Positions 4,215-39,613 of a stretch of DNA of 39,847 nt are shown here, one piece after another. Numbering within the stretch: the stretch's first letter is position 1; every line of letters begins with the position of its first letter. The stretch lies in IMG/VR virus record IMGVR_UViG_3300017913_002205, positions 1 through 39,847 of that record. One strand, 5' to 3'. The translations under genes and the position numbers were made by a program. The notes beneath the pieces are model-generated. The model saw only the letters and a list, made by a program, of their open reading frames with translations. It was not told where the DNA came from and made no database searches. Source of the stretch: a virus (Duplodnaviria > Caudoviricetes).

Positions 4215-4217
4215 TCA

Positions 4218-5240: not shown

Positions 5241-5242
5241 TA

Positions 5243-5899: not shown

Positions 5900-5917
5900 T
5901 TTAGTTTGTGTGTTTTA

Positions 5918-5925
5918 TATAAATA
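5918..5925 (-). promoter_or_regulatory. Putative late promoter core TATTTATA
   Basis: Lies in a short intergenic gap upstream of a structural gene. The same motif recurs before several other genes. Confidence 0.5.
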
Positions 5926-5938
5926 TATGTAAAAATTA

Positions 5939-6904: not shown

Positions 6905-6906
6905 AA

Positions 6907-9849: not shown

Positions 9850-9852
9850 TTA

Positions 9853-10197: not shown

Positions 10198-11248
10198 GTC
10201 TTACTACCTTAAAGATGTTTTTATTATCGAATAATACAGTACTCCCATCGATAACAGATTTAATAAGCAGCCTGTAATGTCTTTCTGGTTGAAATGAATC
10301 CATGAATATATTAAAATAACTGCTTGTATTGTCAGCACTTATCTTAGTATAAACTGGGTCGAAATCTACGATCATTTCACCGCTAAACTCATCTTTTATT
10401 CCGTAGTAAGAATTTTCTGGTAACTTATATTCTGTTAGGTAGATAGAACCTGTAGTGTATGATCTAGCTGGATATTTAGGTCTTGCAGAAACTCTAAATC
10501 TAACAATATCACTATCTGAATACACTTCTTTGTTGTTCTTTATTGAAACAGTAGCTACATCTGTATCCAGTTCCGATAATGAACTAGCCCAGCTTACATC
10601 ATTATATTTAAATTCTAGATAAGGAGGAAATATTGTATTAGTATCAGCACTAAAGTACTTTAAACTTACCGATTGTGTGACATAGTTTTCGTATGCATCT
10701 TCTAACTTAAGTAAGATACCGTAGTTACTAAGACTTGAACTATAATGTGAATCTACAATATCAGTAACGTCAATATCTAAATCGTGATCAGATGTTAAGT
10801 CATTAGTTTTACTACCTGATACACTTGAAGTAATAAAATCTGCTCCTAAATTATCCCATGCATCTTGTCCAGCATTTCTGTATTTCCAGCTACAACCTGT
10901 CCTGTTTACAGGTGAATCAGCTCCTCTTCCGGTACCGTTAGTCCAAGATTGGGAAACTGGGTAAGCATAGATTGTATATGATTCTGGTAATTCACTTGCA
11001 TTGGCTAGCGAAAGGTGTATACTTGCTGAAATACTGCCAGTAATAATGTTATTAACTGCATGAGTAATATCAGTTTGTTTAAACTGAATAAGTGTTCTGT
11101 TGCTTCTCCCTATTGCAGGGTCAGATGGATCAGGGTAACCAGCTACCTCAACTATTTCGTCAAGTCCAGCGTTACCGTACAAACCAGCAGTAGTTGGTGT
11201 ACTGTTTATAAACGTATCTTTTTCGGGATATACTCTATATACTGCCAT
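10190..11248 (-). CDS. Virion protein with DNRLRE-like domain
   Basis: KDTFI...NAG...RTLIQF...WTNG...NYGILLK pattern resembles DNRLRE/disaggregatase-related beta-sandwich domains. Confidence 0.5.
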   Translation of the reverse strand: MAVYRVYPEKDTFINSTPTTAGLYGNAGLDEIVEVAGYPDPSDPAIGRSNRTLIQFKQTDITHAVNNIITGSISASIHLSLANASELPESYTIYAYPVSQSWTNGTGRGADSPVNRTGCSWKYRNAGQDAWDNLGADFITSSVSGSKTNDLTSDHDLDIDVTDIVDSHYSSSLSNYGILLKLEDAYENYVTQSVSLKYFSADTNTIFPPYLEFKYNDVSWASSLSELDTDVATVSIKNNKEVYSDSDIVRFRVSARPKYPARSYTTGSIYLTEYKLPENSYYGIKDEFSGEMIVDFDPVYTKISADNTSSYFNIFMDSFQPERHYRLLIKSVIDGSTVLFDNKNIFKVVRHG

Positions 11249-11249
11249 C

Positions 11250-13073
11250 TTATATTGCTGTTACTCTACCTTTAATGTCTAAATCAGGATACTTTACTTC
11301 AAATATACATGGATCATATGAAGGGTAAACTACTCCATCTTTTGTAGCTCCTTCAGTATCGTATGCATATTGAGAGTAATTACCTCCTGCTTTATTAGAA
11401 ATTACTATATTTTTAACTGTCTGTACACCTTTAACTCTGTCTAATATAGTACCTACTTCTGAAAGGTTGATAGGTTGGTTAATGTTTCTTTTTGCTGTAG
11501 CAAAGTATTTTTTAAGTTCTTCAGTACACCTTGTAAGTACCTCTCTTGCTGCATAATTAGGTAGTGTTAGTACCTCATATTTTACTTCAATATTTACTAT
11601 AAATGCATCTTTAATATCTAATGCGTCTGTGAGCATCATATATTGAGATAGGTACTTTTTAAGGTTATCTTTTAACGTAGAAGGAGCATTTTGTAATTTA
11701 CCATCTACATCGTACGATAACACATAAAGAGATAAAGCTAATGGATTTTTATCTAATACACTTCTATCGGAATTAGCAAGTTGCTCTCTAGTAACAAATG
11801 CTTTGGCAATAGCTCCAAACTGTGTTGGCATGGATAAAGCTCTTACTGTATAATCATCAGCAGTAACTGTACGTTGCTGTTCTGAGAATGAACGTAAAGA
11901 ATTTTGTCTTAATTCATCCACCGTATCACCGTCTTTACCACCTGATGCAGCTGATGGATTATTAACTGCTAATGTGCTTTCTTTAGAAGTGTCTGTTGCA
12001 GTTATAGTACCTAAATTAGTTTTGTTTATAATACTATTTGCAGGTACGTTTGAACTTACACCTCCACCTGTTAGGTATCTAATAGTAAGTGTAGTGTTAC
12101 TTGGAGCTAATCCATATGTTCTAGTAAATAATACATTAGAAGGGTCGTAAGCAACATCTAGTTTGTTAACGTGATATGCAGTTGTATATTTTTCAATATT
12201 AGAAGGGTCAGGTAAAAACTCTTCATCTCTTGCATCGGTAATACCAGAACCAAATTGTATCTGCATCACCCCTGTTGAAGTAAATCTACTAATAAACCTT
12301 CTTGGTACTCTTTGTAACTGTAAAGTGCTTTGCACTAACTCATTGTATGAGCTAGCATTATTTTGTTCTACAAATATAGTATCTTGAGCTAAATAAGGTA
12401 CTTCGTGGTAAATGTTTCCATCACTATCTGTAATATCCAATACTCTTAAAATATTTTCATCTTCTAAAGTAATAGTCTTGAACCTTTCAGCTGATCCAAT
12501 TGCTACTTCTTTAGTATTAAGTGTAGCTGAGTATGCCTTACGTGTCTTTTTTAACTTAAACTGTGAAGGTAGGTTTGTTCCAGAGTCTATTGTTTCAATA
12601 GTAATTTCAGTAGGGTCAAAAGAACTACTAAAACTAAAGTCAATAGCATCATCTACTATAAATGTTGTGTCGTTTGCATCATTTGCTCCTACTATAGCCC
12701 CTCCGGAAACAAATAGTGCTTGATCGTAGTCAGGTATTTCACCTCCTGTTACAGGGTCAACTAATTGAGTAAACTCTAACTCAACTTCTGATGCTGTAGT
12801 AACTCTAGGTCTATAACCCATCATATACGCTAACGTATAAAGATTTTGAGGATTTTGAGCATGCTGTAAGAATGTCTCTTGAAGCTGTGTGTCCTGATAG
12901 AATGAAAGTACATCTCCTAAATAAGATGCCATTTCTATGAACATCATACCTGGAGAGGTAGCTGAAAAGTCATTATATGTGTCAGGAAAGTACTGTTTAG
13001 AAAACTCAATTAACTGAGACCTAAAATCAGAAAACTCCCGATTGATATACTTTATATCTCTTTGCTCAGCCAT
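11250..13073 (-). CDS. Baseplate wedge subunit (T4 gp6/Baseplate J-like)
   Basis: N-terminal REFSDFRSQLIEFSKQYFPDTYNDFSATSPGMMFIEMASYLGDVLSFY, plus ASGGKDGDTVDELR and QQRTVTADDY motifs. Confidence 0.85.
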   Translation of the reverse strand: MAEQRDIKYINREFSDFRSQLIEFSKQYFPDTYNDFSATSPGMMFIEMASYLGDVLSFYQDTQLQETFLQHAQNPQNLYTLAYMMGYRPRVTTASEVELEFTQLVDPVTGGEIPDYDQALFVSGGAIVGANDANDTTFIVDDAIDFSFSSSFDPTEITIETIDSGTNLPSQFKLKKTRKAYSATLNTKEVAIGSAERFKTITLEDENILRVLDITDSDGNIYHEVPYLAQDTIFVEQNNASSYNELVQSTLQLQRVPRRFISRFTSTGVMQIQFGSGITDARDEEFLPDPSNIEKYTTAYHVNKLDVAYDPSNVLFTRTYGLAPSNTTLTIRYLTGGGVSSNVPANSIINKTNLGTITATDTSKESTLAVNNPSAASGGKDGDTVDELRQNSLRSFSEQQRTVTADDYTVRALSMPTQFGAIAKAFVTREQLANSDRSVLDKNPLALSLYVLSYDVDGKLQNAPSTLKDNLKKYLSQYMMLTDALDIKDAFIVNIEVKYEVLTLPNYAAREVLTRCTEELKKYFATAKRNINQPINLSEVGTILDRVKGVQTVKNIVISNKAGGNYSQYAYDTEGATKDGVVYPSYDPCIFEVKYPDLDIKGRVTAI

Positions 13074-13483
13074 TATTGTTCAAAATTTATTACAAGTTCG
13101 TCTTCTATGTTGGTATCTGAAACTTTGTACGACATGCTGAATTGTACTGAGTTTCTATCTGGATCACCAACTGTTTCTATATTCACAACTTCCACTCTTG
13201 GAAAATAAAACTCTAAATCTGCTCTTATTATAGCATCTATTTGAGTTACTTTATTTTGAGTAAGATTTTCAAATAATAGGTTTTGTAAATCGTTACCAAA
13301 AAGAGGGTTTAAATATCTCTCACCTTTAGCAGTGAGAAAGTAATTAATTAAATTATTTTTTATAGCTTCAGCAGAGGTATAGGTAGAGTTAAACACTGCT
13401 CTACCAGATAATGGTAGCTTTACACCTATTGCTTTTCTAGGTTGTAAATCTAACGGATCAATCTTTTTTACCTCAAATGGCAT
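13073..13483 (-). CDS. Baseplate wedge protein, gp25/GPW family
   Basis: IKNNLINYFLTAKGERYLNPLFGNDLQNLLFE...FPRV is the classic gp25 signature, and it lies directly upstream of the gp6-like gene. Confidence 0.85.
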   Translation of the reverse strand: MPFEVKKIDPLDLQPRKAIGVKLPLSGRAVFNSTYTSAEAIKNNLINYFLTAKGERYLNPLFGNDLQNLLFENLTQNKVTQIDAIIRADLEFYFPRVEVVNIETVGDPDRNSVQFSMSYKVSDTNIEDELVINFEQ

Positions 13484-13484
13484 A

Positions 13485-13907
13485 TTATCCTATCCTAGCT
13501 TTAGTTTTTTTATCTGCTAAATCTAATACTGATTTTGCTTTTTGAACAAAGTCGAGTTTAGATATATCTAGTCCAGGCATAGGTCCAGAATTTTCTGTTA
13601 ATCCCATATTACCTGCCATTGATGTAGCAAAATTTGGTTTAGTAACGTTACCAGCACCGGCAAAATTCTTAGCATCATCTCCAGACATAGTCGCAGCAGT
13701 TTGCTGTAACATTTCATCTAAAGTTGCAGATTTACCTGTAGACCATTTTTTTGGTTGATCTTTAGGTACTTCTTTATATAGATTAGTTGGTTGAGGTGCC
13801 GGAGCTGAAGCATATTTTACTGCTTCATTCATTACTTCTTGTAACTCCTCCTTAACAGCAGCTCGAACCTCTTCTCGTATAATTTTACGTAGTTGATTCA
13901 GTTTCAT
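13485..13907 (-). CDS. Hypothetical late protein
   Basis: Amphipathic N-terminus MKLNQLRKIIREEVRAAVKEEL, with the late-type motif immediately upstream. Confidence 0.65.
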   Translation of the reverse strand: MKLNQLRKIIREEVRAAVKEELQEVMNEAVKYASAPAPQPTNLYKEVPKDQPKKWSTGKSATLDEMLQQTAATMSGDDAKNFAGAGNVTKPNFATSMAGNMGLTENSGPMPGLDISKLDFVQKAKSVLDLADKKTKARIG

Positions 13908-13910
13908 ATA

Positions 13911-13918
13911 TATAAATA
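13911..13918 (-). promoter_or_regulatory. Putative late promoter core TATTTATA
   Basis: CTATTTATATATATG directly abuts the start codon at 13907. Confidence 0.5.
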
Positions 13919-13924
13919 GTTAAG

Positions 13925-14989
13925 TTAAGAAAGTTGATTATCGATTCTAAATTTTAATTCGTCTAAAAGTATTTTAGTAGAAGAGCTGAAAGATTTAGGT
14001 CCTTTTAAGATTTCAACACCTGTTTTATCAATTGCAACTGCAAATCTTCTAGGAGCGATAGCAGGAGACTTAGGATCTACTTTTATCTCTAGTTTGTATA
14101 TTTCTCCATTCGGTGCTGTATAGAATGAATCTGCTGATGTAGCTCTTTCAGCGTCAGGGGTGGTTGTTAAAGTGTCTAAAAAACCTTTTATGTTTTCTTT
14201 TACATCATCTGATATTTCACCACTTCCGTTAAGTTTATCTAATGAACCAAGAAGTTGAGAATTAGCATCTTTTTCTAGTTGACCTCTATCTTGTTGGTTT
14301 TCGTTGAAGTTTGTGTATTCTGTTATATTACCTGAGTTATCAAAAGTAAGGCCATCAAAAAGGTTGACACCTATATTCGAAAAAATATACTCTCCGTCAG
14401 CATTGATAATGTTAAGGTCTCTTAAAGTCTGTTCTCTTAACCTACCTTCATTTACCTCTCTTCTCAAAATACCTTCTAATCTACACCCGTTTACAACAGT
14501 AGACACTCTTCCCAAAAGTCTAGAGTACATCGATAGGTTAGCTTGAGGTGTCTGCATGATAGCTATTATTCCGTCTGCATCATCTTTACCTTGTTTTATT
14601 TTTTCTTTTGCAGCGTGTAGTAAATCTGCTTGAATCATTGAGAATGCTACCGGTAAACCAAATCCAGGTGGTACCGATTGAGGAATAGGTAACTTCTTTA
14701 TAATTGCAAGAATTACTTCTATAGCTTTAATAAGGTCTCTAATAGTTTTAGCTAATCTACTAAATTTTGAAACCCTTCTTTCAATACCACTTATATTAGA
14801 AGTTACTGCGTTTATTCTGTTAGATAGTCTTTGAGTTTGAGGTAAACTAGGGCAAGCCTCTCTTCTTACCTTTTGTATAGCATCGGTTACTAAATCTTGA
14901 ACTTTATCACCCAGTTGTCCTTGCAAATCACCAACTTGTTTAGCGATAGCTCCTGTAATCTTAGATTCTGGTATATTAACGTAAGGCAT
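13925..14989 (-). CDS. Hypothetical virion-module protein
   Basis: 354-aa mostly helical ORF with a hydrophobic PIPQSVPPGFGLP segment, between gp5-like and gp25-like genes. Confidence 0.6.
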   Translation of the reverse strand: MPYVNIPESKITGAIAKQVGDLQGQLGDKVQDLVTDAIQKVRREACPSLPQTQRLSNRINAVTSNISGIERRVSKFSRLAKTIRDLIKAIEVILAIIKKLPIPQSVPPGFGLPVAFSMIQADLLHAAKEKIKQGKDDADGIIAIMQTPQANLSMYSRLLGRVSTVVNGCRLEGILRREVNEGRLREQTLRDLNIINADGEYIFSNIGVNLFDGLTFDNSGNITEYTNFNENQQDRGQLEKDANSQLLGSLDKLNGSGEISDDVKENIKGFLDTLTTTPDAERATSADSFYTAPNGEIYKLEIKVDPKSPAIAPRRFAVAIDKTGVEILKGPKSFSSSTKILLDELKFRIDNQLS

Positions 14990-16134
14990 TACTCAGTAAA
15001 TACTTTTTTAGATGATAAAAGTTTTATTCTAGTTTTTAACGCTTTTATACTTGGTATAAGAGCATTGGATGTTGCTACAGCAGCGGCAACATATGCCGGG
15101 GGTGGACCTGGTTTAGAAAGTGTCTGCAGAAGTGTATCTAAATTATCAACCAAAGATGTTAACCAATCTTGAGTTGTTTGTCCTTTAAGTACCGGTTCAT
15201 CTTCTCTATTTAAAGCTGCGGTACCTAAATATATCTTTTTACCATCTAAAGAAACCATATCATCTCCATCCATATGTATCTCTTTTGATGCTAAACCTAT
15301 GTAACTATCTGCTGCAATAAATGCTCCTTCTTCTTTAGCATTAAAAAATAACCTACCACCATTAATCACTACTTGATCTCCTTTATAAACACCTGCTAAG
15401 TCAGCTGGTTTCTTCCAAGAATTAACCGTAGTGTTAGCTTCGTCTAAAGGTACCGAATGGTCTGATACCATATAGATGGAAGAACCATCCTCATTAATAT
15501 CTTCTGATGATAGTGAAGTACCATCATCTGGTTCTTTCATATTGTTTTTTACAATAATAAAAGGTTTACCATTATCAGAATCTTCAGTTATGGTATTAAA
15601 CTTATGCTTAGTACCTCCAAATCTTATTGTATTACCATGTCTACCTGATATTAAAACGTCACCAGGGTAGGTTTGTAAAGGAGCTACTTTATCTGTTTCT
15701 TCGAAATCACCACCAAGGTCAACTTTACCTGTACCATCTTGTAAGGTATCTGGATAAGCATTATGGTTGGGGTGGTTCCAAATATTAACTGCAGATAACC
15801 AGTAGTTTTTAGTTGCTAGAGAACTAACGTCTCTATTTTCTGATGGTAAAGATACTATTATTACTATCTCGTTTTTTAGAGGCATTCTTATAAGGTGAGA
15901 ATCACCACAATATGCAAAAGGTAAAACACTCTCTTCATCTTGTGATACAGCAGAACCTAACTCTCTAAACAACACTCCGTTTATAGCTTGTGATCTACCA
16001 AATCTATCCCAGTAGTCACTAGATTCATCCAACACAACGTCTACAACTCTTCCGAAACGAAAGGTTGGTGGTGTTCCTATACCTATAGCATTACCTACAG
16101 ATCTAGCAAGAATACTTCCTCCAAAATTAAACAT
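14989..16134 (-). CDS. Baseplate hub/spike protein (gp5/gpV-like)
   Basis: OB-fold-like N-terminus (GRVVDV...MPLKNEIV), GDVLISGRHGNTIRFG beta-repeat, KIYLG...EPVLKG C-terminal motif. Confidence 0.6.
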   Translation of the reverse strand: MFNFGGSILARSVGNAIGIGTPPTFRFGRVVDVVLDESSDYWDRFGRSQAINGVLFRELGSAVSQDEESVLPFAYCGDSHLIRMPLKNEIVIIVSLPSENRDVSSLATKNYWLSAVNIWNHPNHNAYPDTLQDGTGKVDLGGDFEETDKVAPLQTYPGDVLISGRHGNTIRFGGTKHKFNTITEDSDNGKPFIIVKNNMKEPDDGTSLSSEDINEDGSSIYMVSDHSVPLDEANTTVNSWKKPADLAGVYKGDQVVINGGRLFFNAKEEGAFIAADSYIGLASKEIHMDGDDMVSLDGKKIYLGTAALNREDEPVLKGQTTQDWLTSLVDNLDTLLQTLSKPGPPPAYVAAAVATSNALIPSIKALKTRIKLLSSKKVFTE

Positions 16135-16498
16135 CCTCTTCGGTGTCTTTGTTTTCTATTTCATCTAACTTCTCTTCAACAGCATCCTGTTCTTCAAGTA
16201 AATCTTGTAATTCAGAAAAGTCAAACATATCTCCACCTTCACCTTTAGCGTTAGCAGATTCTATTCTCTGAACGATGGTAGCTAATTTTATAAGAGCTTC
16301 ATCGTTCTTTACTCCTATTTCCATGTACTCTTTTATCATAGGAACAATAAGAGTAGCATCTCCTATATTTTCTATAAGAGGTTTTAGTTCACCTATCAGA
16401 CCTTTTACTTGAGCTCTAGTATTAGAGGAATTGGTGTGTATTTCAGAAAAAAGATCGGATAAAGTCTTTCCGTCAAATATTTCTTTATCTAAACTCAT
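16127..16498 (-). CDS. Conserved phage hypothetical protein
   Basis: 123-aa helical ORF with acidic tail, preceded by the late-type motif. Confidence 0.65.
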   Translation of the reverse strand: MSLDKEIFDGKTLSDLFSEIHTNSSNTRAQVKGLIGELKPLIENIGDATLIVPMIKEYMEIGVKNDEALIKLATIVQRIESANAKGEGGDMFDFSELQDLLEEQDAVEEKLDEIENKDTEEDV

Positions 16499-16511
16499 TA
16501 GTTTTATTTTA

Positions 16512-16519
16512 TATAAATA
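16512..16519 (-). promoter_or_regulatory. Putative late promoter core TATTTATA
   Basis: In a 23-bp gap at the head of the structural module. Confidence 0.5.
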
Positions 16520-16521
16520 GA

Positions 16522-17235
16522 CTAACGTAATTTATTGACGATATGACCGTTTTCGTATAGCTTTAAATACTTTGAATAAAAGTCTTCTTTCAATACATTT
16601 ACTACTCTTGTCAGTAAGGGTGTTTCACAGTTGGTAATTTCTCTTATATAAATGTATAAAGCTTTCTTTCTAAATATCTCTATGTCGTTTCTAGTCTTAA
16701 ATATAGTTAAAACTGCATCTGCAATTTTCTTTTCTATTTCTTTTACAAACATTTCATCAAGATCGTCGTACATTTCAACAACCCATCTGTCGATAAATTG
16801 ACCTAAAGTAATAGTATGACCTGATTCGTCATTTTCTAACATGGAATCATCATCGTAAGACTCTTCTATATCGGAAAACGAACCTATCTTTTTAAGTTTC
16901 TTATAGTTTTTATTGTTGTAATTAATTAACCACCTTTTGACAATAGTACCAAAGTAAGAATACGCTTTTGCACCGTTTGTAGGGTCAAACTTCATAATCT
17001 TTTGCTCTAGTAAAATAGAAACTATTTCATGTTTAAGATTTTCTATCTGATCCACATCTGTATAGTAGAACTTAAACGTATGAATAATGTTTTCTGCTAG
17101 TTTATAAAAAGGGAAGTAAATGTGTTCAGTAAAGATCTTGTTTCTATACTGGTCGTCTGTTGAATTATTATACCTAACTATGTACTCTTCTGTCTCTTTT
17201 GTAAAATAGTTAGCTTTGCTCTTCTTTCTGGGCAT
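16522..17235 (-). CDS. Phage RNA polymerase sigma factor, gp55-like (putative late sigma)
   Basis: Basic N-terminus followed by NYF. KFDPTNGAKAYSYFGTIVKRWLINY resembles the sigma region 2 segment (FDP...F.YF..I) of T4 gp55-like proteins. Confidence 0.6.
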   Translation of the reverse strand: MPRKKSKANYFTKETEEYIVRYNNSTDDQYRNKIFTEHIYFPFYKLAENIIHTFKFYYTDVDQIENLKHEIVSILLEQKIMKFDPTNGAKAYSYFGTIVKRWLINYNNKNYKKLKKIGSFSDIEESYDDDSMLENDESGHTITLGQFIDRWVVEMYDDLDEMFVKEIEKKIADAVLTIFKTRNDIEIFRKKALYIYIREITNCETPLLTRVVNVLKEDFYSKYLKLYENGHIVNKLR

Positions 17236-17518
17236 TAGTAAATCGGTTTAACTGTTCTTGAACAGCTTTCATTTGTTCGAAAAAATAACCGACCTCGTCA
17301 TCTGACTGAAAAACCCCACGTTCGTCTAGTTGATTAAGGTGCATTTGTGAATCTACTATAGTTTCTTGTACTTCTTGTAGAGTATCTTGTAAATTCTCTA
17401 CTCTATCCTCATATTTTTCCACTTTCAATAGTAGATTTCTTAAAATGTAAGTAAAAATTATTAGGACAACAACTAAAATTGTTATTATTACGTTATATGC
17501 GGTAAAAATTGACGACAT
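17210..17518 (-). CDS. Membrane-anchored coiled-coil protein
   Basis: N-terminal transmembrane segment VIITILVVVLIIFTYIL followed by heptad repeats. Confidence 0.65.
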   Translation of the reverse strand: MSSIFTAYNVIITILVVVLIIFTYILRNLLLKVEKYEDRVENLQDTLQEVQETIVDSQMHLNQLDERGVFQSDDEVGYFFEQMKAVQEQLNRFTNAQKEEQS

Positions 17519-18252
17519 TATAGATTTTTAAGAGTTTTTGCAAGTCCATCCGATGCATTTACACGTCTTCCTGTTGAGGATTGTGTCTTCACAACTTTAG
17601 AAGTAGTGGAACCACCGTTTCTTTTCCAAATATCGTATTCTGCTTTAGAAGCTAGAAAGTCTGCACTGTGTAGTACTGAGATTAAGCTTGTTTTTTGACG
17701 AGAACTCTCTTGATAACTGAAGAAATATGATTTATTAGCTTCATCAAACACACCATCATGTAATCTGATACCTAAAAATTCTTTTTGACTTACTGGAATA
17801 CCGAATTTCTGTAAAATAAACAACGATCTATCAGGAATTAACATAAACTGAAGATCTGGATTAGGTGTATACATTTCGGATAACTTATCTTGACGCCATT
17901 TATCTGTTTGAGGTAAGTAATTTGGTGATTCTCCATCACCTAGTTTACCTAAATCGTGAAATAATGCGGCAAAGACAAGCTCTTCTATGGTGTAATCAAT
18001 TGTTCCACCCATCTCCTCGTATAACCTCGACTGCTTTACCGCATATTCCACAACCCTATTTACGTGATCGACATAACCACCTTGGAATGCATTATGATAC
18101 CATGTCTTTGCACTAGCAGGAGCTAAAGCATACTCTTCTTGGAATGAATCTATCATAGATAAAACCTTATCCTTACGGTTGGTAATATAGGTTTCGACTA
18201 TTTTTAAGTGCTTTTCGTAGTTTTTTTGGATTTGCTCCTTAGTCAATGACAT
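17518..18252 (-). CDS. HD-domain phosphohydrolase (YhaM/Cbf1-like catalytic domain)
   Basis: PASAKTWYHNAFQGGYVDH, ALFHDLGK, IRLHDG and LHSAD metal-binding motifs. Confidence 0.8.
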   Translation of the reverse strand: MSLTKEQIQKNYEKHLKIVETYITNRKDKVLSMIDSFQEEYALAPASAKTWYHNAFQGGYVDHVNRVVEYAVKQSRLYEEMGGTIDYTIEELVFAALFHDLGKLGDGESPNYLPQTDKWRQDKLSEMYTPNPDLQFMLIPDRSLFILQKFGIPVSQKEFLGIRLHDGVFDEANKSYFFSYQESSRQKTSLISVLHSADFLASKAEYDIWKRNGGSTTSKVVKTQSSTGRRVNASDGLAKTLKNL

Positions 18253-21555: not shown

Positions 21556-22063
21556 ATTGCTGGTTTAATGTATTAACTTCTAAGTATGTCTGATAATCAT
21601 CATCGTTGGCATAATAACCCCAATGTAATAAGCTTTGCTGTACCCTCTTGCCTACTTCTAGACTCTTTGCCTCATGCATCTTCTTATAGATGTTTCTTCT
21701 CCATCTACCTTTATGACCACAAAACTCTTGCCAGCGTCTAATCTGTCTTTCGTCATCTTCATGCCTTCTACCCATATCGTATTTACAATACCATTCAAAC
21801 CATCCATAAGGATCATCTTGATGCATCCATCCCATCTCTTTCCAATACTCATACGGCATACCGCTTCTAACTTTAAACTTATTGATAGATGGCTTATAAG
21901 TCTCTCCTAAGTATAAGCTTGTATCTAAGCCTTTGAAATGATAATCAAATAACTCTTGATACTCATAGTTAGTATATTCTTCTATGACTAAACCGAAATA
22001 GCATCCTCCAAATGCTCCTTGTTCGATTATCTCTCTGGGTGTTAATAAGGGTTTAAAGTACAT
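21527..22063 (-). CDS. Conserved Trp-rich protein of unknown function
   Basis: PLLTPREIIEQGAFGG...DPYGWFEWYCKYDMGRR...DDERQIRRW...QSLLHWGY. I recall this family from phages, giant viruses and some eukaryotes. Confidence 0.7.
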   Translation of the reverse strand: MYFKPLLTPREIIEQGAFGGCYFGLVIEEYTNYEYQELFDYHFKGLDTSLYLGETYKPSINKFKVRSGMPYEYWKEMGWMHQDDPYGWFEWYCKYDMGRRHEDDERQIRRWQEFCGHKGRWRRNIYKKMHEAKSLEVGKRVQQSLLHWGYYANDDDYQTYLEVNTLNQQYERERELLR

Positions 22064-22571
22064 TTACATTTGGTTTAAGGTTATCTTTTGTAAACCACAT
22101 AGTAAGTGAATAACGAACACCTTTAGTTACTTCAGTAACGCTATGAGTTAAACCAGAATCAAATAATGCTATTGTACCTAAACCTTTCTCTACTTGTTGA
22201 CCTCTTACGATCAAACTACCTCCTTCATAACCTTCATTTAGCTGTATAACAGCAGTAATTAACCTATCTTTAATAGACTCAACCCCTGGCATTCTATCTT
22301 TATGATCTTTAAACACTCCTCCAACTTCGTACTTTGCATAATTAAACGTAGAAGGAAGGCTTACTATATCAAACTGTTTTAACTTAGGAAGAAGTATTTC
22401 TCCTATCACATCCCTATACCCCAACACACAACCGTAAGCAACTCTTTGACTAGAGTATCCTATTACATCTTCTGCTCCAACAAGGCCTAACCTATTCCAT
22501 ACAGGAGGAAGCTCTAAAAGTGAAGCACATTCAACCGAAGAAAGAAAATTAGACTTACTTACACTTAACAT
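22053..22571 (-). CDS. 2OG-Fe(II) oxygenase (prolyl-4-hydroxylase-like)
   Basis: HKD metal dyad, YEGGSL, distal H (THSV), and RYS 2OG-binding motif. Confidence 0.85.
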   Translation of the reverse strand: MLSVSKSNFLSSVECASLLELPPVWNRLGLVGAEDVIGYSSQRVAYGCVLGYRDVIGEILLPKLKQFDIVSLPSTFNYAKYEVGGVFKDHKDRMPGVESIKDRLITAVIQLNEGYEGGSLIVRGQQVEKGLGTIALFDSGLTHSVTEVTKGVRYSLTMWFTKDNLKPNVNVL

Positions 22572-26698: not shown

Positions 26699-27235
26699 TT
26701 AAATTGCTGTTTTTTCAATACCCAACTCAGCTTTTGTTAAAAAAAACAACCATGAATATCTTTTACCTTTAGTTACCTTAGTAACCTCATGTTCTAGAGA
26801 AGCATCAGTAAGGTAAATTTCACCTGCCTTTCTAGGTATTTCAAAATCTGGGTTATAGTATATTAACCTTCCACCTTCAAAGTCTTCATTTAATACACCT
26901 CCTACAATCTTCTCCCATATGTCCATTCTATGTTTATCGATATGACGTTCAAATTTCATACCAGGGTAGTATTCGAAATTATTGAAATAAGCCGTTTCTC
27001 TTACAGTATTGTTAGGGTATCCATTTTCGTCTAAATAGTCACCAACTATATCAAAAAACCATTGTGTTTCCTCAGTTCTTTCAACCATAGACATTTGATA
27101 GTCTATTCTTGACTTTTTCAAACCAGCAGAAGTGTTTATTTCTCCTTCTTTGAAATCATTTATATTTTTACTCTTATGTACTGGGTGTTTATGTAAATCT
27201 ATTAACTTTTTACATTGATCTTTGGTAAGTTTCAT
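26699..27235 (-). CDS. 2OG-Fe(II) oxygenase (P4H-like)
   Basis: HID, FEGGRL, LEHEVTKVTKGKRYS. Start placed at MKLTKDQC (27235) because of an ATGA overlap with the upstream stop. Confidence 0.85.
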   Translation of the reverse strand: MKLTKDQCKKLIDLHKHPVHKSKNINDFKEGEINTSAGLKKSRIDYQMSMVERTEETQWFFDIVGDYLDENGYPNNTVRETAYFNNFEYYPGMKFERHIDKHRMDIWEKIVGGVLNEDFEGGRLIYYNPDFEIPRKAGEIYLTDASLEHEVTKVTKGKRYSWLFFLTKAELGIEKTAI

Positions 27236-27819
27236 AGTATGTTTTTTACTGTCCGGGTTTGTTGTTTCTCTATATTGATACATAGGCTACCTGCATAGAC
27301 TAACCTGTCGATATCACAGTTCGGTGTTGGAACGGCAGTATGTCTTAAATCAGCAGGAAAAATAAACCAATCTCCTTCTTCAGGTAAAAAAGAATGTCTA
27401 ACTCCATTCTCATCTTCAAAGATTATACACCCCTCATTACCTTCAAGGTTTTTTGGTTGTTGTATATAGTAAGTAAAAGTAAAGTCTGTAAATATCTTAC
27501 TTCTACCATTAGGGTGTACTAAAAGATGTTGGTGCATCCATTCTAAATTAAAATTTTTTGTTTGAGTGTACACCCAATAATGTTCAGCAAAATTACGAAA
27601 AGGTTCACCTGTAAATTCAGTAATTCTCTGTTTTATAATATCATTAACACCTCTAAAAATTTCAGCATTAGTTTCCATCCAAAGAGAGTCATTGTCAATA
27701 TTTACTAAATTCTTTTTATTCAATTCAATCAAACGAAGAAATTCGTCTTTTTTGGAACTAAAGTTTAAATCCTTACCTCTATGAATGGTAAAACGGGAAG
27801 ATAGTTTTATTGGTTTCAT
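27232..27819 (-). CDS. Putative 2OG-Fe(II) oxygenase (HxH type)
   Basis: WMHQH, FTYYI, PEEGDWFIFPADLRHTAVP, DRLVYAG. Confidence 0.75.
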   Translation of the reverse strand: MKPIKLSSRFTIHRGKDLNFSSKKDEFLRLIELNKKNLVNIDNDSLWMETNAEIFRGVNDIIKQRITEFTGEPFRNFAEHYWVYTQTKNFNLEWMHQHLLVHPNGRSKIFTDFTFTYYIQQPKNLEGNEGCIIFEDENGVRHSFLPEEGDWFIFPADLRHTAVPTPNCDIDRLVYAGSLCINIEKQQTRTVKNIL

Positions 27820-28415
27820 ATAACATGAGTCTGTTTAGATTTAATCCTATTGGAACCTTTTTTAAATTCACCGTTAACAAAATAAGTCCAATTTATCTTA
27901 TGCATACCTCCAACGTGACGAGTGTAGTTTAGTCCAGATAGGTCGTACTCATACAAATTAAGTTCCGATTGATCTCTTATTGTAAAGTAATTCCATATTG
28001 ATAAAATACATCCACTGTTAGCCACTTTTGCTGCATAATTTTCAAACATACGGTAATTTGGGTCGTAATGAGTGTCCATAAAAATACCATCATACTTAAT
28101 GTTGAGTTGAGGTATAATCTCAATCCAATCTCCAAAAATGATATTGGTGTTAGGTCTTCCTTTTGCCCAAGCAGATGCTTTCTTGTAAATTTGAGGGTTT
28201 ATTTCAATGCAAGTGTAACTGTCTGCCAGTTCAGACATTTTATTAGCAGAAAAACCCATACCAAACCCTATATCTAAAACATCTCCTTGATTTTGACAAA
28301 CAATTCTAGCATACATTTCTGTAATACCTTTTGATGCAGCTTCCATAACCACACTCCTAGGGTTGTCTTCTAGTACTATTTTACGGTCATCAATTATAAC
28401 TTTTTTATTCCTCAT
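27816..28415 (-). CDS. Class I SAM methyltransferase, Rmt2/GAMT-like
   Basis: VLDIGFGMGFSA, CIEINP, IIFGDW and YDGIFMDT follow the guanidinoacetate/arginine N-methyltransferase pattern. Confidence 0.8.
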   Translation of the reverse strand: MRNKKVIIDDRKIVLEDNPRSVVMEAASKGITEMYARIVCQNQGDVLDIGFGMGFSANKMSELADSYTCIEINPQIYKKASAWAKGRPNTNIIFGDWIEIIPQLNIKYDGIFMDTHYDPNYRMFENYAAKVANSGCILSIWNYFTIRDQSELNLYEYDLSGLNYTRHVGGMHKINWTYFVNGEFKKGSNRIKSKQTHVI

Positions 28416-28840
28416 AAAATCTTTTTTCTGTCCAACCTTTCGTACCTTTGGTAGTTACTCACAATCTCCTGACCTTCTCTTATGTCTCTGGTAGTTAAAC
28501 GAGTATCTTTATCAAAGTTATGATTTTTTCCGCTATTTACAAAATAGTAAGGTGTGGTATGTATCCAATGACACCCTTTAGTCAACCATACATGAGTATC
28601 TGAATTAGAAGGAAAGTCTGGGCCATATAAAAAAATGCTCTTTACATGGTGGTAAAGATCATATGGAAGAGTTTTAAGAAGTTCCTCTGCTATTGGGTAA
28701 TTTCCCGTTTCACCTAACCAAGGTTCAAATATCTTAGACGAGCAAGGGATGTCACGTACTGCAAACACCCCTACTCCTGATATTCTGCTTGGCTTTAATC
28801 TAGTAAAAACTTTACTAGAAATATAACCAAATGCATCCAT
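28412..28840 (-). CDS. SET-domain methyltransferase
   Basis: LKPSRISGVGVFAVRDIP, YFVNS (variant of NHS), TRDIREGQEIVSNY. Confidence 0.8.
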   Translation of the reverse strand: MDAFGYISSKVFTRLKPSRISGVGVFAVRDIPCSSKIFEPWLGETGNYPIAEELLKTLPYDLYHHVKSIFLYGPDFPSNSDTHVWLTKGCHWIHTTPYYFVNSGKNHNFDKDTRLTTRDIREGQEIVSNYQRYERLDRKKIL

Positions 28841-28983
28841 TATGTGTGCTTAGCAGCAAATAATTCAAAAAATTTATTAAGTGTAGTATTTATTGAGCTA
28901 GCTTCGGCATCTGTTACAGACGTAGTGTTTCTATTAACTGCTTGAGATGCTGTTACTTTTTTATAAAGTGTTGGTGTGTTCAT
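28840..28983 (-). CDS. 47-aa Ser/Thr-rich peptide (not in ORF track)
   Basis: MNTPTLYKKVTASQAVNRNTTSVTDAEASSINTTLNKFFELFAAKHT*. It starts 3 bp after the upstream stop and ends in a TAATG overlap with the SET gene. Confidence 0.75.
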   Translation of the reverse strand: MNTPTLYKKVTASQAVNRNTTSVTDAEASSINTTLNKFFELFAAKHT

Positions 28984-28986
28984 ATC

Positions 28987-31338
28987 TTACTTATTATGTG
29001 CTACAATATTTCCAGCAATATAGTTATGGTATTCTTCAACAGTAAAGTTGTAAACAGGTGTATCAGCTGGTGTTGATACTTGGTTAATTACCTCTACCTC
29101 TATCCATTCATTATCTTTTGTATTGAAAATAAAATCTCCCACTTCTAACTTTGAAGCCTCTCCTGATGAAGCATAAGGTTCCTGGTTAGGATCTGGTACT
29201 AATGACTTCCAACCTTCTTTAGTCAAGAAAGGATGTTCTGGTGTAAACTTCAATGCATCATAGTCGTTAAAATAATACACTGAAGTATCGTCGCCAAGTA
29301 CTTTACATGCCTCAGCATGATCTCCAACTGTATGACTATGATCTACTGCTGTTACATTACCGTGTACGATTTCACCATCTACATACGATTGTACTATATC
29401 TCCAACTGCAATATCTTGAATAAACTTATAGGAACCATCAGATAAAGTAATTTTCGTGTCAGCTACAAAACAAGTAGGGTCTCCTCTGTTGTGAGCTAAA
29501 CGTTGGTAAACGTAGTAATTATGGTTATCTTTTACTTGACGTAAGTTATAAACTACCTTTTCGTCGTTTTTAATTTCTATTTTAACTATTTTAGCAACTG
29601 TACCATCAGCTTTGAGTATCTCACATCCAATAGAAATAAGCTTAACATCTAAATCGTACTTATCTTTAGAATAATCTGGATCGCTAGATACCCAACCGTG
29701 AACGTTACAGTATAGTGGGTGGTCTAATGTAGCTTCGATAGTAGTACCGTCATCAAATGTATACTCAACTGTTTTACTAACTACCTTAGAGGTAATTGCT
29801 TCAACTGGTTTGGCTTCATTTACCTTAGCTACAAAATTATAAGTAAGTACTTCATCTCCTACCTTGATATCCTCTATTGATTTAGAACTACCATCTGGTA
29901 AAGAAATTTGTGTACCTTCTACAAAGCAAGGAGCATTGTGAGCAACAATAGAGTTAATAGCAGATGAACCACTTAAGATAATTGTATCTGTGTCTTCAAC
30001 ATCTAATTCAACTACATTAATATCTGTGTCTGTAGTAACGTAAAAATTTACTTCATCTATATCTACTAAGTCACCTGATCTATTAACAAAATAATGAACG
30101 TCTGCTTCAAGATCTACTGCAGGTTCGAACTTCATTACATTTGACTGAGAGTTGTAAACTAAAAAGTCTTTTCCGGAACCAGCAAAAACTATGTCACCAT
30201 TCACATCAAGTTCGATTAAAGCACCGTACTTTAACTTAGTTGTATCTGAAAATACCACATCTGATGATGTTAAATATGATCCAGAAGGAAACGTTGAACC
30301 GCTAACTCCCCATGAAAATACTTCTGCATCATTTTCAGTCATTGGAGACCCTGAAACATAGTATGAAGCAAGCTTATCTCCTACAGAAGCTGATTGCATT
30401 TCAACAAATGTACCATCTGCATATTCTACTTCATGAGAGCCTAATAAACCTCTGTTAGATCTTTTAACAAAGTTAGTAGTGTACTCATAGAAGTGTTCGT
30501 CACCTAATTTATTAGTGTACCTAGATGATGTATATTCCGGAAGAGATGTTGGATGATCAAAGACAGCACAAACCCTGTAATTAAGGATGTTTATCCAATC
30601 TAAATTTGATCCGTAAACAATACCAAACTGACGAATGGATGTAATTTTGTTACCATCTAAAGAAGATGAATGAAAATTAAACTTTTCAATTAACTTATCA
30701 TCTGCCTTGTTCTCAGCAATAAATGCATCCCATCTAGCTTGATCTGATTCTCCACTTGTTTCCGAACCGATCTTAAAAAAGTCGATTGGGTTAAATGATT
30801 GATCAACATCTTTTATGACTGCATCTGGAAGGCCATCGCCGTTAAAAGAAGGGGTCAAAGTATTGTACACCGTACCGTCAGACGATGAATGATAGTACTC
30901 AGAAGTGTATGTATTTGTACCGTCACCACTTGCAGAGGTAAATAAGTTAAATACATTAAGTCTGTTCTTAGCATATGTACTATCGAATATTGCCGATTCA
31001 TCATATGCTAGTCTTAAAATAAATTTATTACTTGCATCATCTACTGTTACAGGGTAAATTACATTACGATCCTCAGGATGTTCGTATATATTAGTAATAA
31101 ACGTAGCATCTGTGTTTAAGATCGATTTTATCTTTGCAAGTATGTTTCTGTGAATAACTGGTTTGTAAATAATGTCTACAGAAGTAATATTATTATCAGA
31201 CATAACACTAATCCATCCAGATAAGTCTAGATCAGATAAAGCATCTGTTAAAAATGCAGTATCTGTGTTAAGTTCTAATAATCTAAGATTCTCTGATGAG
31301 TCTTTTACAAAATCAGCCGAAAATAAGGTACCTTTCAT
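28987..31338 (-). CDS. Circularly permuted ATP-grasp-like domain fused to three tandem Hint (intein-like) domains
   Basis: N-terminal region has ADFVKDSSENLRLLELNTD, PDAVIKD, LIEKF and SIRQFGIV. Hint1 about aa297-468 (degenerate), Hint2 C471-N617 (CFVEGT, TLDH, LAHN), Hint3 C623-N782 (CFVADT, TPEH, VYNFTV, VAHN). Confidence 0.8.
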   Translation of the reverse strand: MKGTLFSADFVKDSSENLRLLELNTDTAFLTDALSDLDLSGWISVMSDNNITSVDIIYKPVIHRNILAKIKSILNTDATFITNIYEHPEDRNVIYPVTVDDASNKFILRLAYDESAIFDSTYAKNRLNVFNLFTSASGDGTNTYTSEYYHSSSDGTVYNTLTPSFNGDGLPDAVIKDVDQSFNPIDFFKIGSETSGESDQARWDAFIAENKADDKLIEKFNFHSSSLDGNKITSIRQFGIVYGSNLDWINILNYRVCAVFDHPTSLPEYTSSRYTNKLGDEHFYEYTTNFVKRSNRGLLGSHEVEYADGTFVEMQSASVGDKLASYYVSGSPMTENDAEVFSWGVSGSTFPSGSYLTSSDVVFSDTTKLKYGALIELDVNGDIVFAGSGKDFLVYNSQSNVMKFEPAVDLEADVHYFVNRSGDLVDIDEVNFYVTTDTDINVVELDVEDTDTIILSGSSAINSIVAHNAPCFVEGTQISLPDGSSKSIEDIKVGDEVLTYNFVAKVNEAKPVEAITSKVVSKTVEYTFDDGTTIEATLDHPLYCNVHGWVSSDPDYSKDKYDLDVKLISIGCEILKADGTVAKIVKIEIKNDEKVVYNLRQVKDNHNYYVYQRLAHNRGDPTCFVADTKITLSDGSYKFIQDIAVGDIVQSYVDGEIVHGNVTAVDHSHTVGDHAEACKVLGDDTSVYYFNDYDALKFTPEHPFLTKEGWKSLVPDPNQEPYASSGEASKLEVGDFIFNTKDNEWIEVEVINQVSTPADTPVYNFTVEEYHNYIAGNIVAHNK

Positions 31339-37378: not shown

Positions 37379-37552
37379 TTACCCAAATAGCATTTGTTTG
37401 TCAGATGATGATCCTTCAGAGATTATCTTATGCTCAACTATATGTCTGTTTCTACACCACTGTTGGATTGACCAATCAATTCTATCTGTAGTAAGTTCTA
37501 CAGTTTCTTTTTTTCCATCACCGTGAGTAAATTCTACTTTATATGTTTTCAT
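37379..37552 (-). CDS. 57-aa hypothetical protein (not in ORF track)
   Basis: MKTYKVEFTHGDGKKETVELTTDRIDWSIQQWCRNRHIVEHKIISEGSSSDKQMLFG*, ATGA overlap with the GT2 stop. Confidence 0.7.
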   Translation of the reverse strand: MKTYKVEFTHGDGKKETVELTTDRIDWSIQQWCRNRHIVEHKIISEGSSSDKQMLFG

Positions 37553-38718
37553 AAGTGAATAAGTTTATCTGTATATTCAGTAAGTGAGTTAATAGTGATA
37601 GATAAATTACCTAAATTAAATTTACCTACACTTCCACTATCTTTAATAATTTGAGATAGTTTCTGTATATAAATAAAGTCGTCGTTGCTAAAACTCTTAC
37701 CGTCTATGTTAACTACAATATCAGAATCACACGATAGTTGTTTGTTAATACGTTTAGACAAGTCTATAATAGTATTTACTTGTTCTTTTTCGATATAACT
37801 ATCGTAATCAATATCGACACACAAACAATCACACCATGGTTCTAATGCTTCAATAATATTCATATTAGCATTACTAACCACTATACCAACATTGTATTTA
37901 GGTGGTACTATAGGTTTCATTAGGTTATCATGCATAACAAAATGACCCCATTTACGGATAAAGTTACGAGTACTTCTCATATTCTGAGCTAGCCATTCTG
38001 GACTATCTTCATATATGTTCTTAGCTTTATCTAATGTGTTTCTTCTACTACCTCTTGATGTCATATGGTAAACAAAACCATCCCATACTTGCTTAAACTT
38101 AACTCCGTTCAATTGAAACCTATTGAATATATCTGAGTCTTCTTTTGACTGAGGAGCATACAATGGGTCATGACCTCCTATCTCTTGAAAATCTCTTCTA
38201 TAGAATGCCCATGGAGCAAATATACCTTCAGTTACTTTAGTAGCATCTTTACTCTTTTCATACCATTCTAATACTACCTGCTCTTTAAACTCCTCTGGTT
38301 CAACACCGCAGTTAAGTAGTACCTTTTCTGGACCATCTGGATGTAGAGGAGGTTCTATTCTAGTTAGTGATACTATGACTTTCTCTTCTATCTCTCTTTC
38401 AATAGCGTCTAATGCACCAGGCATTAAGTACATATCAGCATGATAGATCATAGCAATATCATTTGTTGCTACTTCATTAATTAACCTATCATATAAGATT
38501 GTGTGACCTAATCTTTTGCCAGTGTCATTTAAAATAGCTTTAAACTTATCATCTTTAGCCATCATTTCCTCACACCATGCCCAAGTACCATCAGTTGATG
38601 CATCATCTGCGACACAAATCTCTACATCATGACTACCTTGATTTTTTCTTATAGCAGCATAAGCCCACTTAAGATATTTTAAATTGTTCCTTCCAGGTTG
38701 TATTAAACTGATCTTCAT
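37549..38718 (-). CDS. Glycosyltransferase family 2 (GT-A)
   Basis: MKISLIQP, EICVADDASTDGT, HADM (DxD-like), IGGHD...EDSD. Confidence 0.9.
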   Translation of the reverse strand: MKISLIQPGRNNLKYLKWAYAAIRKNQGSHDVEICVADDASTDGTWAWCEEMMAKDDKFKAILNDTGKRLGHTILYDRLINEVATNDIAMIYHADMYLMPGALDAIEREIEEKVIVSLTRIEPPLHPDGPEKVLLNCGVEPEEFKEQVVLEWYEKSKDATKVTEGIFAPWAFYRRDFQEIGGHDPLYAPQSKEDSDIFNRFQLNGVKFKQVWDGFVYHMTSRGSRRNTLDKAKNIYEDSPEWLAQNMRSTRNFIRKWGHFVMHDNLMKPIVPPKYNVGIVVSNANMNIIEALEPWCDCLCVDIDYDSYIEKEQVNTIIDLSKRINKQLSCDSDIVVNIDGKSFSNDDFIYIQKLSQIIKDSGSVGKFNLGNLSITINSLTEYTDKLIHL

Positions 38719-39613
38719 GAAAATATTTTTTGTAGTTTAAAAGAGCTGTACGACTACAGTGGTCATAAAACTCTTGATCATTCTTTAATTTATGAATTTT
38801 TTCTCGGGCCGACAACACATCACCTATTTGAACTGATAAATCTGGATGGCATAGCTCCTGTGTGTCTAAACCTTCATACCCAATGCAAGGTATGCCTAAA
38901 TAAGCACAGTTAAGAGCAAATGTACCAGCAGCATGAGTCTTCATTAGATGAACTGCATACTTAAAGTTGTTAAGAGTTTTAATCCAATCAACCCAATTCA
39001 TATAAGGTAGTTGTTTTAACCCTAACTGTTCTTCTCCTTCTTGTCTTTGACCCATTTTAGGAGAGTATACTTCTTCACCTATAGAATTAGCAACCATAAA
39101 TGAATCAAAACCTCCATACCACTCAACAAAGTTACCTCCTACCATAACTCCCTTACGTTCAACTTGAGGTATATCTTTTACTGAATCTTCTATCATAAGT
39201 GAAGGTAATATTCTAACGTCTGGATGACCAGTTATACCTTCAAAGTATCTCTTATCTACTCTGTTATGGCAAAATACTACATCAGCATTTCGTAAACTAT
39301 TAAAGTAACTTATCTGACCTGCTAGTGAGTAACGTTGAAAAAACCATGCTGGTCCTTCCTGCATTACTGCAATTTTATTACAAAACTTTCTGGCTGTTTG
39401 TAAAAAGTCTTTTTCAATAGCACCTATAAGTTTTTCTTCTGGTTTAGGGATAATAATTAGACCCAGGTCATATTGCTTATCCGGAACATCACCAAACGTG
39501 TAGCAATCAGCTTCTAAAGTACACGGCCATGCTTGTTCTGTTCTCATGCCAGGATATGAACGAGGTATCTTTTGACCTCCAAAATTCATTTCAGTTATAT
39601 AAGCTACTCTCAT
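38669..39613 (-). CDS. Glycosyltransferase (GT-B/GT4-like)
   Basis: ADVVFCHN and AAGTFALNCAYLGIPCIG (variant of E.FG....EA...G.P.I), located in a sugar cluster. Confidence 0.7.
   Translation of the reverse strand: MRVAYITEMNFGGQKIPRSYPGMRTEQAWPCTLEADCYTFGDVPDKQYDLGLIIIPKPEEKLIGAIEKDFLQTARKFCNKIAVMQEGPAWFFQRYSLAGQISYFNSLRNADVVFCHNRVDKRYFEGITGHPDVRILPSLMIEDSVKDIPQVERKGVMVGGNFVEWYGGFDSFMVANSIGEEVYSPKMGQRQEGEEQLGLKQLPYMNWVDWIKTLNNFKYAVHLMKTHAAGTFALNCAYLGIPCIGYEGLDTQELCHPDLSVQIGDVLSAREKIHKLKNDQEFYDHCSRTALLNYKKYFHEDQFNTTWKEQFKIS

Follow-up and report, generated by a model that had tools for sequence, protein, structure and literature searches.

ATP-grasp enzymes take part in systems that produce peptides made on the ribosome and modified after translation (RiPPs), such as the graspetides and the pheganomycin ligase, and borosins provide examples of precursors fused to their enzymes; an ATP-grasp, a variable peptide and tailoring enzymes recur among these systems. 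Graspetides are defined by an un-permuted, RimK-type ATP-grasp which acts on a separate leader-core precursor. Among the Hint domains, the A-type bacterial intein-like (BIL) domains are described as splicing by aminolysis through an alpha-amine. The BUBL1 locus of Tetrahymena encodes a Hint-containing polyprotein whose BIL2 domain is reported to form a Lys isopeptide (PMC8616854), and the Hints of polymorphic toxins (PT-HINT) and of the hedgehog/Vint type release a C-terminal piece by autoproteolysis (PMC3113570). Circularly permuted ATP-grasps include YgiC and YjfC, which are described as peptidylpolyamine synthetases (PMC12568646); this fold class thus couples a peptide carboxylate to an alkylamine. 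Here we analyse a viral gene that brings such elements together. It lies in a window of 39,847 nucleotides, the whole stretch of DNA under study (IMG/VR record IMGVR_UViG_3300017913_002205; Duplodnaviria, Caudoviricetes), and encodes a predicted ATP-grasp ligase followed by three tandem Hint domains.

The 783-aa product reads, from its N-terminus, as ATP-grasp, Hint1, the dipeptide AP, Hint2, the pentapeptide RGDPT, Hint3 and a final Lys (Table 1). An initial annotation, made by a model from the sequence alone, had given coordinates and motifs for the open reading frame (ORF), the three Hints, the linkers and the final Lys, and all of them proved exact when re-read. The AlphaFold model of the whole chain has a mean pLDDT of 85.6 and falls below 50 at the junctions 466-469 and 619-623 only. 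That annotation had interpreted the gene as a self-processing polyprotein which releases or activates AP, RGDPT and Lys. Its view of the fold, of the non-canonical Hints and of their variability was supported; the idea that the system exists to make AP, RGDPT and free Lys found no support, and the annotation missed the constant parts, namely a 47-aa partner protein and a set of phage enzymes that share a short C-terminal tag. Judged from the homologs, the eye-catching tandem Hints are the variable and dispensable part of the module, not its core. As an overall interpretation we tentatively propose that a two-subunit ligase of GspS/YgiC type joins the C-terminal carboxylate of the tagged enzymes to the Lys of its own tail.

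Modelled separately, aa 1-295 reach a mean pLDDT of 84. Foldseek gives eight matches for this model at E<=0.001, and every one of them is a YjfC, a YgiC, a GspS or a glutathione synthetase (GS), with TM 0.36-0.42. The VIA comparison, which covered Foldseek's 1000 chains and is blind to folds that Foldseek missed, places members of the GS/GspS/YgiC class in all of its top 25 rows (best Z 9.1, root-mean-square deviation 5.8, 226 residues aligned) and the first row of an unrelated fold at Z 6.0; its alignment sets model residue 1 opposite residue 94 of YgiC, 310 of GspS and 119 of human GS. Structure rows of the atlas give TM 0.58-0.61 to GS and GspS clusters, scores in the atlas feature search were all below 0.9, and no significant family was found for aa 1-295 in Pfam, PHROGs or NCBIfam. 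The metal-binding triad D9, E22 and N24 is invariant in 101/101 close homologs and in all 27 members of the distant set (18-41% identity). K176 (98/101), E218 (94/101) and R236 (101/101) follow in the expected order, their equivalence to nucleotide-site residues being by order alone, and the ATP-grasp motifs are present in the order that the initial annotation had listed (D9, E22-x-N24, K176, E218, R236). Its proposal of a circularly permuted, glutathionylspermidine synthase-like ATP-grasp is supported by Foldseek, VIA and the invariant metal-binding residues. From modelled fold, catalytic triad and domain order, aa 1-295 can with high confidence be taken as a circularly permuted ATP-grasp without its N-terminal part. 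Like E. coli YgiC/YjfC, GspS and eukaryotic GS (PDB 7uk6, 7uk8, 2io8, 1m0w, 2hgs), this domain has the permuted fold and carries the D..E-x-N triad where the aligned region begins. The phage domain differs from these enzymes in being only 7-12% identical to them, in lacking their N-terminal part, in its predicted need for the 47-aa partner, and in its fusion to Hints and a tail.

The partner accompanies the ligase in every distinct related locus (92/92). A homolog of 42-50 aa follows the ligase gene in 37/37 distinct close loci (57 of 58 loci given) and a homolog is also found there in 55/55 distinct distant loci (59 of 80 given); the ORF is conserved among loci, not hypervariable, and has no significant family in Pfam, PHROGs or NCBIfam. 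A complex of aa 1-468 with the 47-aa protein, predicted with ATP and Mg included, scored an ipSAE of 0.87, compared with 0.01 for the best of three controls, with contact agreement of at least 94% across runs and a partner pLDDT of at least 88. The ipSAE mark is reached by 116/157 solved complexes and by 2/215 mismatched pairs, rates which apply only roughly here. In the predicted complex, the N-terminal strand of the partner pairs with Hint1 at 430-435, and its C-terminal helix lies on ATP-grasp residues 10, 20, 129-133 and 144. The modelling thus supports binding and makes it very probable that the 47-aa protein is a second ligase subunit.

The second constant component is the tag. Under the rule that an ORF ends in two hydrophobic residues, 85/102 of the first three ORFs downstream of the ligase carry such ends across 35 loci, compared with 29/153 ORFs located at least three genes upstream, and in the distant subfamily the proportion among the first three downstream ORFs is 146/153. 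In 15 enzyme clusters, 188/202 distinct proteins are tagged, with the consensus K-[SKNT]-[LI]-[IL] in a strict C-terminal register; as a control, 1/14 cyanophage 2-oxoglutarate (2OG)-type proteins is tagged. The carriers comprise 2OG-Fe(II) oxygenases, SET and other methyltransferases, radical S-adenosylmethionine (SAM) enzymes, SGNH-like proteins, and sulfotransferase-, glycosyltransferase- and sugar isomerase-like proteins, and they are scattered genome-wide. Counted under a stricter rule, tagged ORFs exceed expectation in the ligase-bearing genomes G004 (22/246, expected 7.4, P 8e-6) and G001 (33/332, expected 10.3, P 7e-9), and not in the ligase-lacking G006 (7/184, expected 5.5, P 0.31) and Flavobacterium phage immuto (9/171, expected 5.1, P 0.07). 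This enrichment counts for a link between ligase and tag, and we consider it moderately likely that the tag is read by the ligase-partner complex. Within G001, 9/22 enzyme homologs have no tag. Searches with two of the tagged enzymes gave close relatives only and were of no use as a control. In G006, the ORF at 128348 of contig C1 encodes a tagged-enzyme homolog that ends in KSILC, with one extra Cys, as if its tag had decayed.

Hint2 and Hint3 are intact. They match the Pfam families PT-HINT (E 4e-10) and Intein_splicing (E 1e-7), respectively, and hold the catalytic sets C471, T537/H540 and H616-N617 in 147 aa, and C623, T699/H702 and H781-N782 in 160 aa, both without an endonuclease; their Cys1, block-B TxxH and terminal His-Asn are kept in nearly all of 101 aligned homologs. 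Their nearest solved relatives, BIL2 (6tmm/6y75) and the C. thermocellum BIL (2lwy), found with a sequence E of 3e-21 and TM 0.84-0.90 by target, likewise have no C/S/T at the residue following the domain (+1). In the phage protein the +1 residues of the three Hints are A469, R618 and K783, which rejects a class 1 intein, and C/S/T occurs at +1 in 1/433 intact Hints of the family. By these residues Hint2 and Hint3 are members of the A-type BILs, with self-processing as the prediction, and the conservation agrees with the earlier view that these Hints are unable to splice canonically yet keep the residues for the N-S shift and Asn cyclisation. The two share 31% identity, and 294/294 units resemble a counterpart from a different protein more closely than the unit beside them, so that a recent tandem duplication of Hint2 into Hint3 was rejected; as intact Hints group by position and not by protein, they appear to be old inserts. 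Across the family, 426/433 intact Hints are followed by K, R, L, F, Y or W. This is the set of bacterial N-degron residues, and a spent Hint downstream might be exposed to ClpS-type turnover by C-terminal cleavage.

Hint1 has no match among the Pfam Hint models; in a profile-profile comparison with hhalign it aligns with Hint2 at 93% and with Hint3 at 94% probability, and it also aligns with a paralogous Hint that is intact and occurs in other phage genomes (E 1e-15 to 1e-12). The absence of Cys1 and TxxH, already recognised in the initial annotation, is seen as G297 at position 1, in 101/101 close homologs, and as G387 and K390 where TxxH is expected; the domain also has no Cys. The terminal His-Asn is kept in 352/361 homologs, and N468 in 101/101 close and all 27 distant members. 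Class 2 and class 3 inteins were rejected for Hint1, which has neither Cys nor block-B His and is followed by Ala; both classes have a C/S/T nucleophile at +1, which class 2 combines with a block-B His and class 3 with the block-F Cys of a WCT motif (PMC7664689). A separate 575-aa gene (L152:994-2721 (+), L151:736-2463 (-), L281) combines an N-terminal part of ~165 aa with an intact Hint of the Hint1 type, which has Cys1, TxxH and His-Asn and is followed by Lys and a laminin-G/ConA domain; it likely encodes a virion protein and is a candidate ancestor of Hint1.

Like BUBL1, the phage gene encodes a Hint polyprotein, yet the flanks of the BUBL Hints are ubiquitin-like domains, whereas those of the phage Hints are tail pieces of 0-30 residues behind an ATP-grasp and a putatively cleavage-only Hint. 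With the polymorphic-toxin and hedgehog/Vint Hints the phage protein shares a predicted autoproteolytic release of its C-terminal piece, and in 59 homologs the last Hint lacks His-Asn and matches Vint weakly (E 1e-4); in contrast to the toxins, the phage protein has no toxin domain, carries its Hints in tandem and places an enzyme at the N-terminus.

The family comprises 920 homologs at E<=0.001 among 4607 candidates, which form 320 clusters at 50% identity, and this number argues that the architecture is not due to chance. Architectures were counted in 363 distinct proteins of at least 455 aa, of which 349 were parsed and 14 skipped. Intact Hints number none in 34 homologs (6 of them truncated fragments, 28 complete), one in 144, two in 161 and three in 10. 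The first linker of 155 parsed close homologs is AP in 99, SP in 32 and absent in 10; in the wider set it is absent in 27, where the His-Asn of Hint1 abuts Cys1 of the next Hint, and in distant homologs it can be a Cys-rich peptide. Homologs whose first linker is missing or long make a diketopiperazine formed from AP a less favoured product. Second linkers occur in 70 different forms of 1-11 aa, often of low complexity, with K/R at +1 or +2 in 145/146. RGD as an integrin-type motif was rejected, being the sole case among 146 linkers and altered in a close strain, where D620 of RGDPT is Ala. The comparison of Hint number and linkers that the initial annotation had suggested thus shows variation from 0 to 3 intact Hints and from zero residues to Cys-rich peptides.

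The homologs nevertheless share one kind of ending. Two-Hint homologs have uninterrupted tails such as RGIPKL or RKL after the intact Hint, and in three-Hint homologs a Hint separates RG or R from KL or K; a homolog with no intact Hint ends in PAPPPKL (P0317), and in another the tail is a single Lys (P0404). K/R stands at +1 or +2 after 427/433 intact Hints, compared with 8/311 after Hint1. In 276/286 His-Asn-terminated homologs the last Lys lies at most four residues from the C-terminus, as the last residue in 196, the second-last in 65, the third in 7 and the fourth in 8. Hint2 and Hint3 are therefore read as probable optional inserts just before the basic residue of one short, Lys-ending tail, with AP and RGDPT as parts of that tail rather than dedicated products. 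Among near-identical contigs no junction matching a clean Hint deletion was found, and such contigs show presence, not absence. At the end of the last Hint, SGLGD...FKRQ, with a weak Vint match, replaces His-Asn-Lys in L006, L010, L011, L012, L024, L051 and 47/156 close homologs; by its residues, a last Hint of this kind could form an N-terminal thioester only. A distant subfamily (L063-L142) has hypervariable six-Cys tails of ~30 aa with conserved Cys spacing, which end in Lys and usually one hydrophobic residue; it is flanked on both sides by tagged enzymes, and 321 viral stretches encode a relative. P0334 (935 aa) and P0392 (569 aa) carry extra sequence before the end of Hint1.

The proposed mechanism would begin with Hint2 and Hint3, whose intact catalytic residues make self-processing very likely. 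They would either rejoin their flanks by aminolysis or only cleave, in which case the products would be free Lys and short fragments. Hint1, limited to C-terminal cleavage, would quite probably cut after N468 and free the tail. The ligase and its 47-aa partner would then form an amide, with the tag as acyl donor and the epsilon-amine of the tail Lys as acceptor, which we regard as the weakest step. This assignment of roles is tentatively based on the strict register of the tag, as a donor should have, and the loose register of the Lys, as a side-chain acceptor could have; on the fold class, which activates peptide C-termini for alkylamines; and on the numbers, since 15-20 enzymes would not all find work on a single short tail. 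Genomes hold a single ligase (5/5 searched) and ~15-20 tagged proteins above chance, which are too many to tailor a four-residue tail as in G001. Further points that count for ligation of the tagged enzymes to the tail are the tag enrichment that goes with the ligase, the nesting of forms with none to three intact Hints in which the tail Lys is kept, the basic residue that follows intact Hints and not Hint1, the predicted ligase-partner complex, and the Lys isopeptide that the nearest solved Hint, BIL2, is reported to form (PMC8616854). Stated in full, the scheme is virus-encoded protein conjugation independent of ubiquitin and sortase, in which a two-subunit ATP-grasp would read a C-terminal tag of four residues, present on at least a dozen phage enzymes, and would join these enzymes through isopeptide bonds to a self-carried Lys peptide, assembled by non-canonical Hint splicing before basic residues and freed by a cleavage-only Hint; in this complete form it is doubtful.

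Several observations weigh against the proposed ligation. GspS and glutathione synthetase have an Arg two residues ahead of the first metal Asp, the position at which Ser7 is found in 101/101 close homologs and G, S, T or A in distant ones, and the N-terminal ~95-120 residues of the GS/GspS/YgiC enzymes are absent from the chain; the predicted ligase resembles YgiC/GspS by fold, yet it lacks these two features of membership, and the fold scores are modest (TM 0.36-0.42, Z 6-9). In Hint1, D451 replaces the block-F His, so that its cleavage may be slow or absent. Homologs which end in a Hint without His-Asn and without terminal Lys number 59/349, and in these the tail Lys cannot be the acceptor. 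The six-Cys tails look like products themselves and are unexplained by a ligase-tag model. The genome-wide tag control compares two genomes with two, and 2/7 enzyme homologs in the ligase-lacking G006 satisfy the tag rule nonetheless. As each ligase has one tail, the reaction would be limited to a single turnover, and activity, cleavage and conjugate are all predictions from sequence and models. In PMC7664689, BIL domains are described as being without a +1 nucleophile, with products mainly cleaved, not spliced.

The strongest competitor is a RiPP-like fusion of precursor and enzyme that would serve to make the tail itself. Hint1 would release the N-terminus of the tail, the ATP-grasp would act on it by cyclisation or acylation, and the tags would do no more than dock tailoring enzymes on the complex; splicing of the intact Hints would, in this window, rebuild an 8-residue tail. 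We consider this rather unlikely, although the hypervariable tails occur with the same partner (55/55) and the same tags (146/153 downstream ORFs), and the SET-like, guanidino-methyltransferase-like and 2OG oxygenase neighbours would suit Lys, Arg and Pro in the tail. Among 35 loci, which are kin, SET_A and GAMT-like genes occur only beside Arg-containing tails. Such a product is difficult to reconcile with tails that shrink to a single Lys (P0404 and zero-linker forms) or that have 4 residues beside 13 tagged proteins in the flanks, and many tagged proteins (SGNH, sulfotransferase, glycosyltransferase, sugar isomerase) resemble enzymes that act on glycans or small molecules and are spread genome-wide. 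A RiPP of the graspetide type was rejected, as the triad is N-terminal and the best-matching folds permuted, the variable peptide sits behind a Hint in the enzyme's own chain, and the small ORF is conserved.

The tail could also be a removable inhibitory or timing element whose Lys occupies the amine site; the Hints would be passengers, the freed enzyme would ligate a small molecule (e.g. peptide-polyamine), and the tags would have a separate role in targeting or turnover. That Lys is the sole constant residue fits this improbable alternative, as does an S74-like chaperone domain after the tail in P0419, P0434 and P0455 (E 3e-4 to 7e-3, below the Pfam cut-off), a second kind of self-removing domain there. 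K/R at +1 also follows the intact Hint in the unrelated virion-like gene and may be a habit of the Hint clan. Passenger Hints would hardly keep all catalytic residues and fixed positions (294/294), and neither the tags that follow the ligase nor the conserved six-Cys spacing is accounted for. Still more improbable is the model of the initial annotation, by which Hint pairs would excise and thioester-activate AP, RGDPT and free Lys for ligation, resembling a natural two-intein arrangement. The chemistry would be possible, each linker lying between a His-Asn end and an intact Cys1; AP or SP is found in 131/155 close homologs, and the last Hint of 59/349 homologs can, by its residues, make an N-terminal thioester only. 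Against separate micro-peptide products stand the 27 zero-length first linkers, the 28 complete forms without an intact Hint, the drifting, low-complexity second linkers, and the uninterrupted R...K-L tail of two-Hint homologs where three-Hint homologs hold a Hint; moreover, thioester ligation needs no ATP-grasp.

Compared with the graspetides, the pheganomycin ligase and the borosins, the phage ATP-grasp is permuted and not RimK-type, the peptide would be released by a Hint and not by a protease, and the recognition tag sits on the phage enzymes and is not a leader on the substrate. The parts are of known kinds, and their combination fits no known system. No description of the module was found in the literature on phage ATP-grasps with Hints, circularly permuted ATP-grasps, phage RiPPs with intein and ATP-grasp, tandem Hints or tagged giant-phage enzymes, in searches beyond which most subscription papers lay. 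The module is widespread in uncultured aquatic phages, as its 320 clusters indicate. It allows direct tests of whether splicing by BIL-type Hints can do without a C/S/T nucleophile if Lys or Arg stands at +1, and of the reason for the arrays of oxygenases, methyltransferases and radical SAM enzymes in large aquatic phages. Should the tag be a substrate of the ligase, a four-residue C-terminal tag and a small ligase would make a new protein-ligation tool.

Table 1. The ligase gene, its domains and the neighbouring genes, with positions in the window.
Feature	Position	Strand	Evidence
Polyprotein ATP-grasp/Hint1/AP/Hint2/RGDPT/Hint3/Lys, 783 aa	28987..31338	-	ORF reading, AlphaFold model
Predicted circularly permuted ATP-grasp domain, aa 1-295, GS/GspS/YgiC class	30454..31338	-	Foldseek, VIA, invariant residues
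Hint1, aa 297-468, degenerate, Gly first, AHN end	29935..30450	-	Alignment
First tail segment AP, aa 469-470	29929..29934	-	Sequence, homolog counts
Hint2, aa 471-617, intact, A-type BIL-like, +1 Arg	29488..29928	-	Pfam, alignment
Second tail segment RGDPT, aa 618-622; only the leading basic residue conserved	29473..29487	-	Homolog linkers
Hint3, aa 623-782, intact, A-type BIL-like, +1 Lys	28993..29472	-	Pfam, alignment
Terminal Lys783, sole constant tail residue	28990..28992	-	Homolog tail counts
Unannotated 47-aa ORF, predicted second subunit	28840..28983	-	Follows ligase stop codon; complex prediction
SET-domain-like protein, end KKIL (tagged)	28412..28840	-	Pfam SET E 0.012; a homolog at 51% identity matches SET at E 1e-5
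Class I SAM methyltransferase, end THVI (tagged)	27816..28415	-	Best solved relative guanidinoacetate N-methyltransferase, E 5e-7
2OG-Fe(II) oxygenase, end KNIL (tagged)	27232..27819	-	Family match
2OG-Fe(II) oxygenase, tag-like end KTAI, fails two-hydrophobic rule	26699..27283	-	Family match
2OG-Fe(II) oxygenase, tag-like end VNVL, away from cassette	22053..22571	-	E 1e-13

At 39.8 kb, the record covers a viral fragment with a completeness of 24%. Of its 47 ORFs in the window, 34 match Flavobacterium phage vB_FspM_immuto_2-6A (Immutovirus), mostly in order and with 82% identity in a core gene, which suggests from sequence similarity an Immutovirus-like phage with a host in the Flavobacteriia; the immuto genome is homologous and largely collinear but without the ligase cassette. 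Near-identical contigs are present in seawater metagenomes apart from the run that may be the source, and no RNA data set was listed as containing one. One full ligase copy was found in each of the five large phage records searched (202-326 kb) and none in a complete 177-kb relative; the family had no match in 50,697 phage records, and a pattern scan of limited reach over 185,579 prokaryote genomes confirmed 0/61 candidate stretches. Promoter and terminator scans stayed at chance level. Elsewhere in the window, an Immutovirus-like baseplate/tail block spans 597-18252 and includes two tail-fibre genes with S74 chaperones (1056-2510 and 2512-3153), and at 37549-39613 lie two untagged glycosyltransferase-like genes, homologous to the immuto glycosylation cluster.

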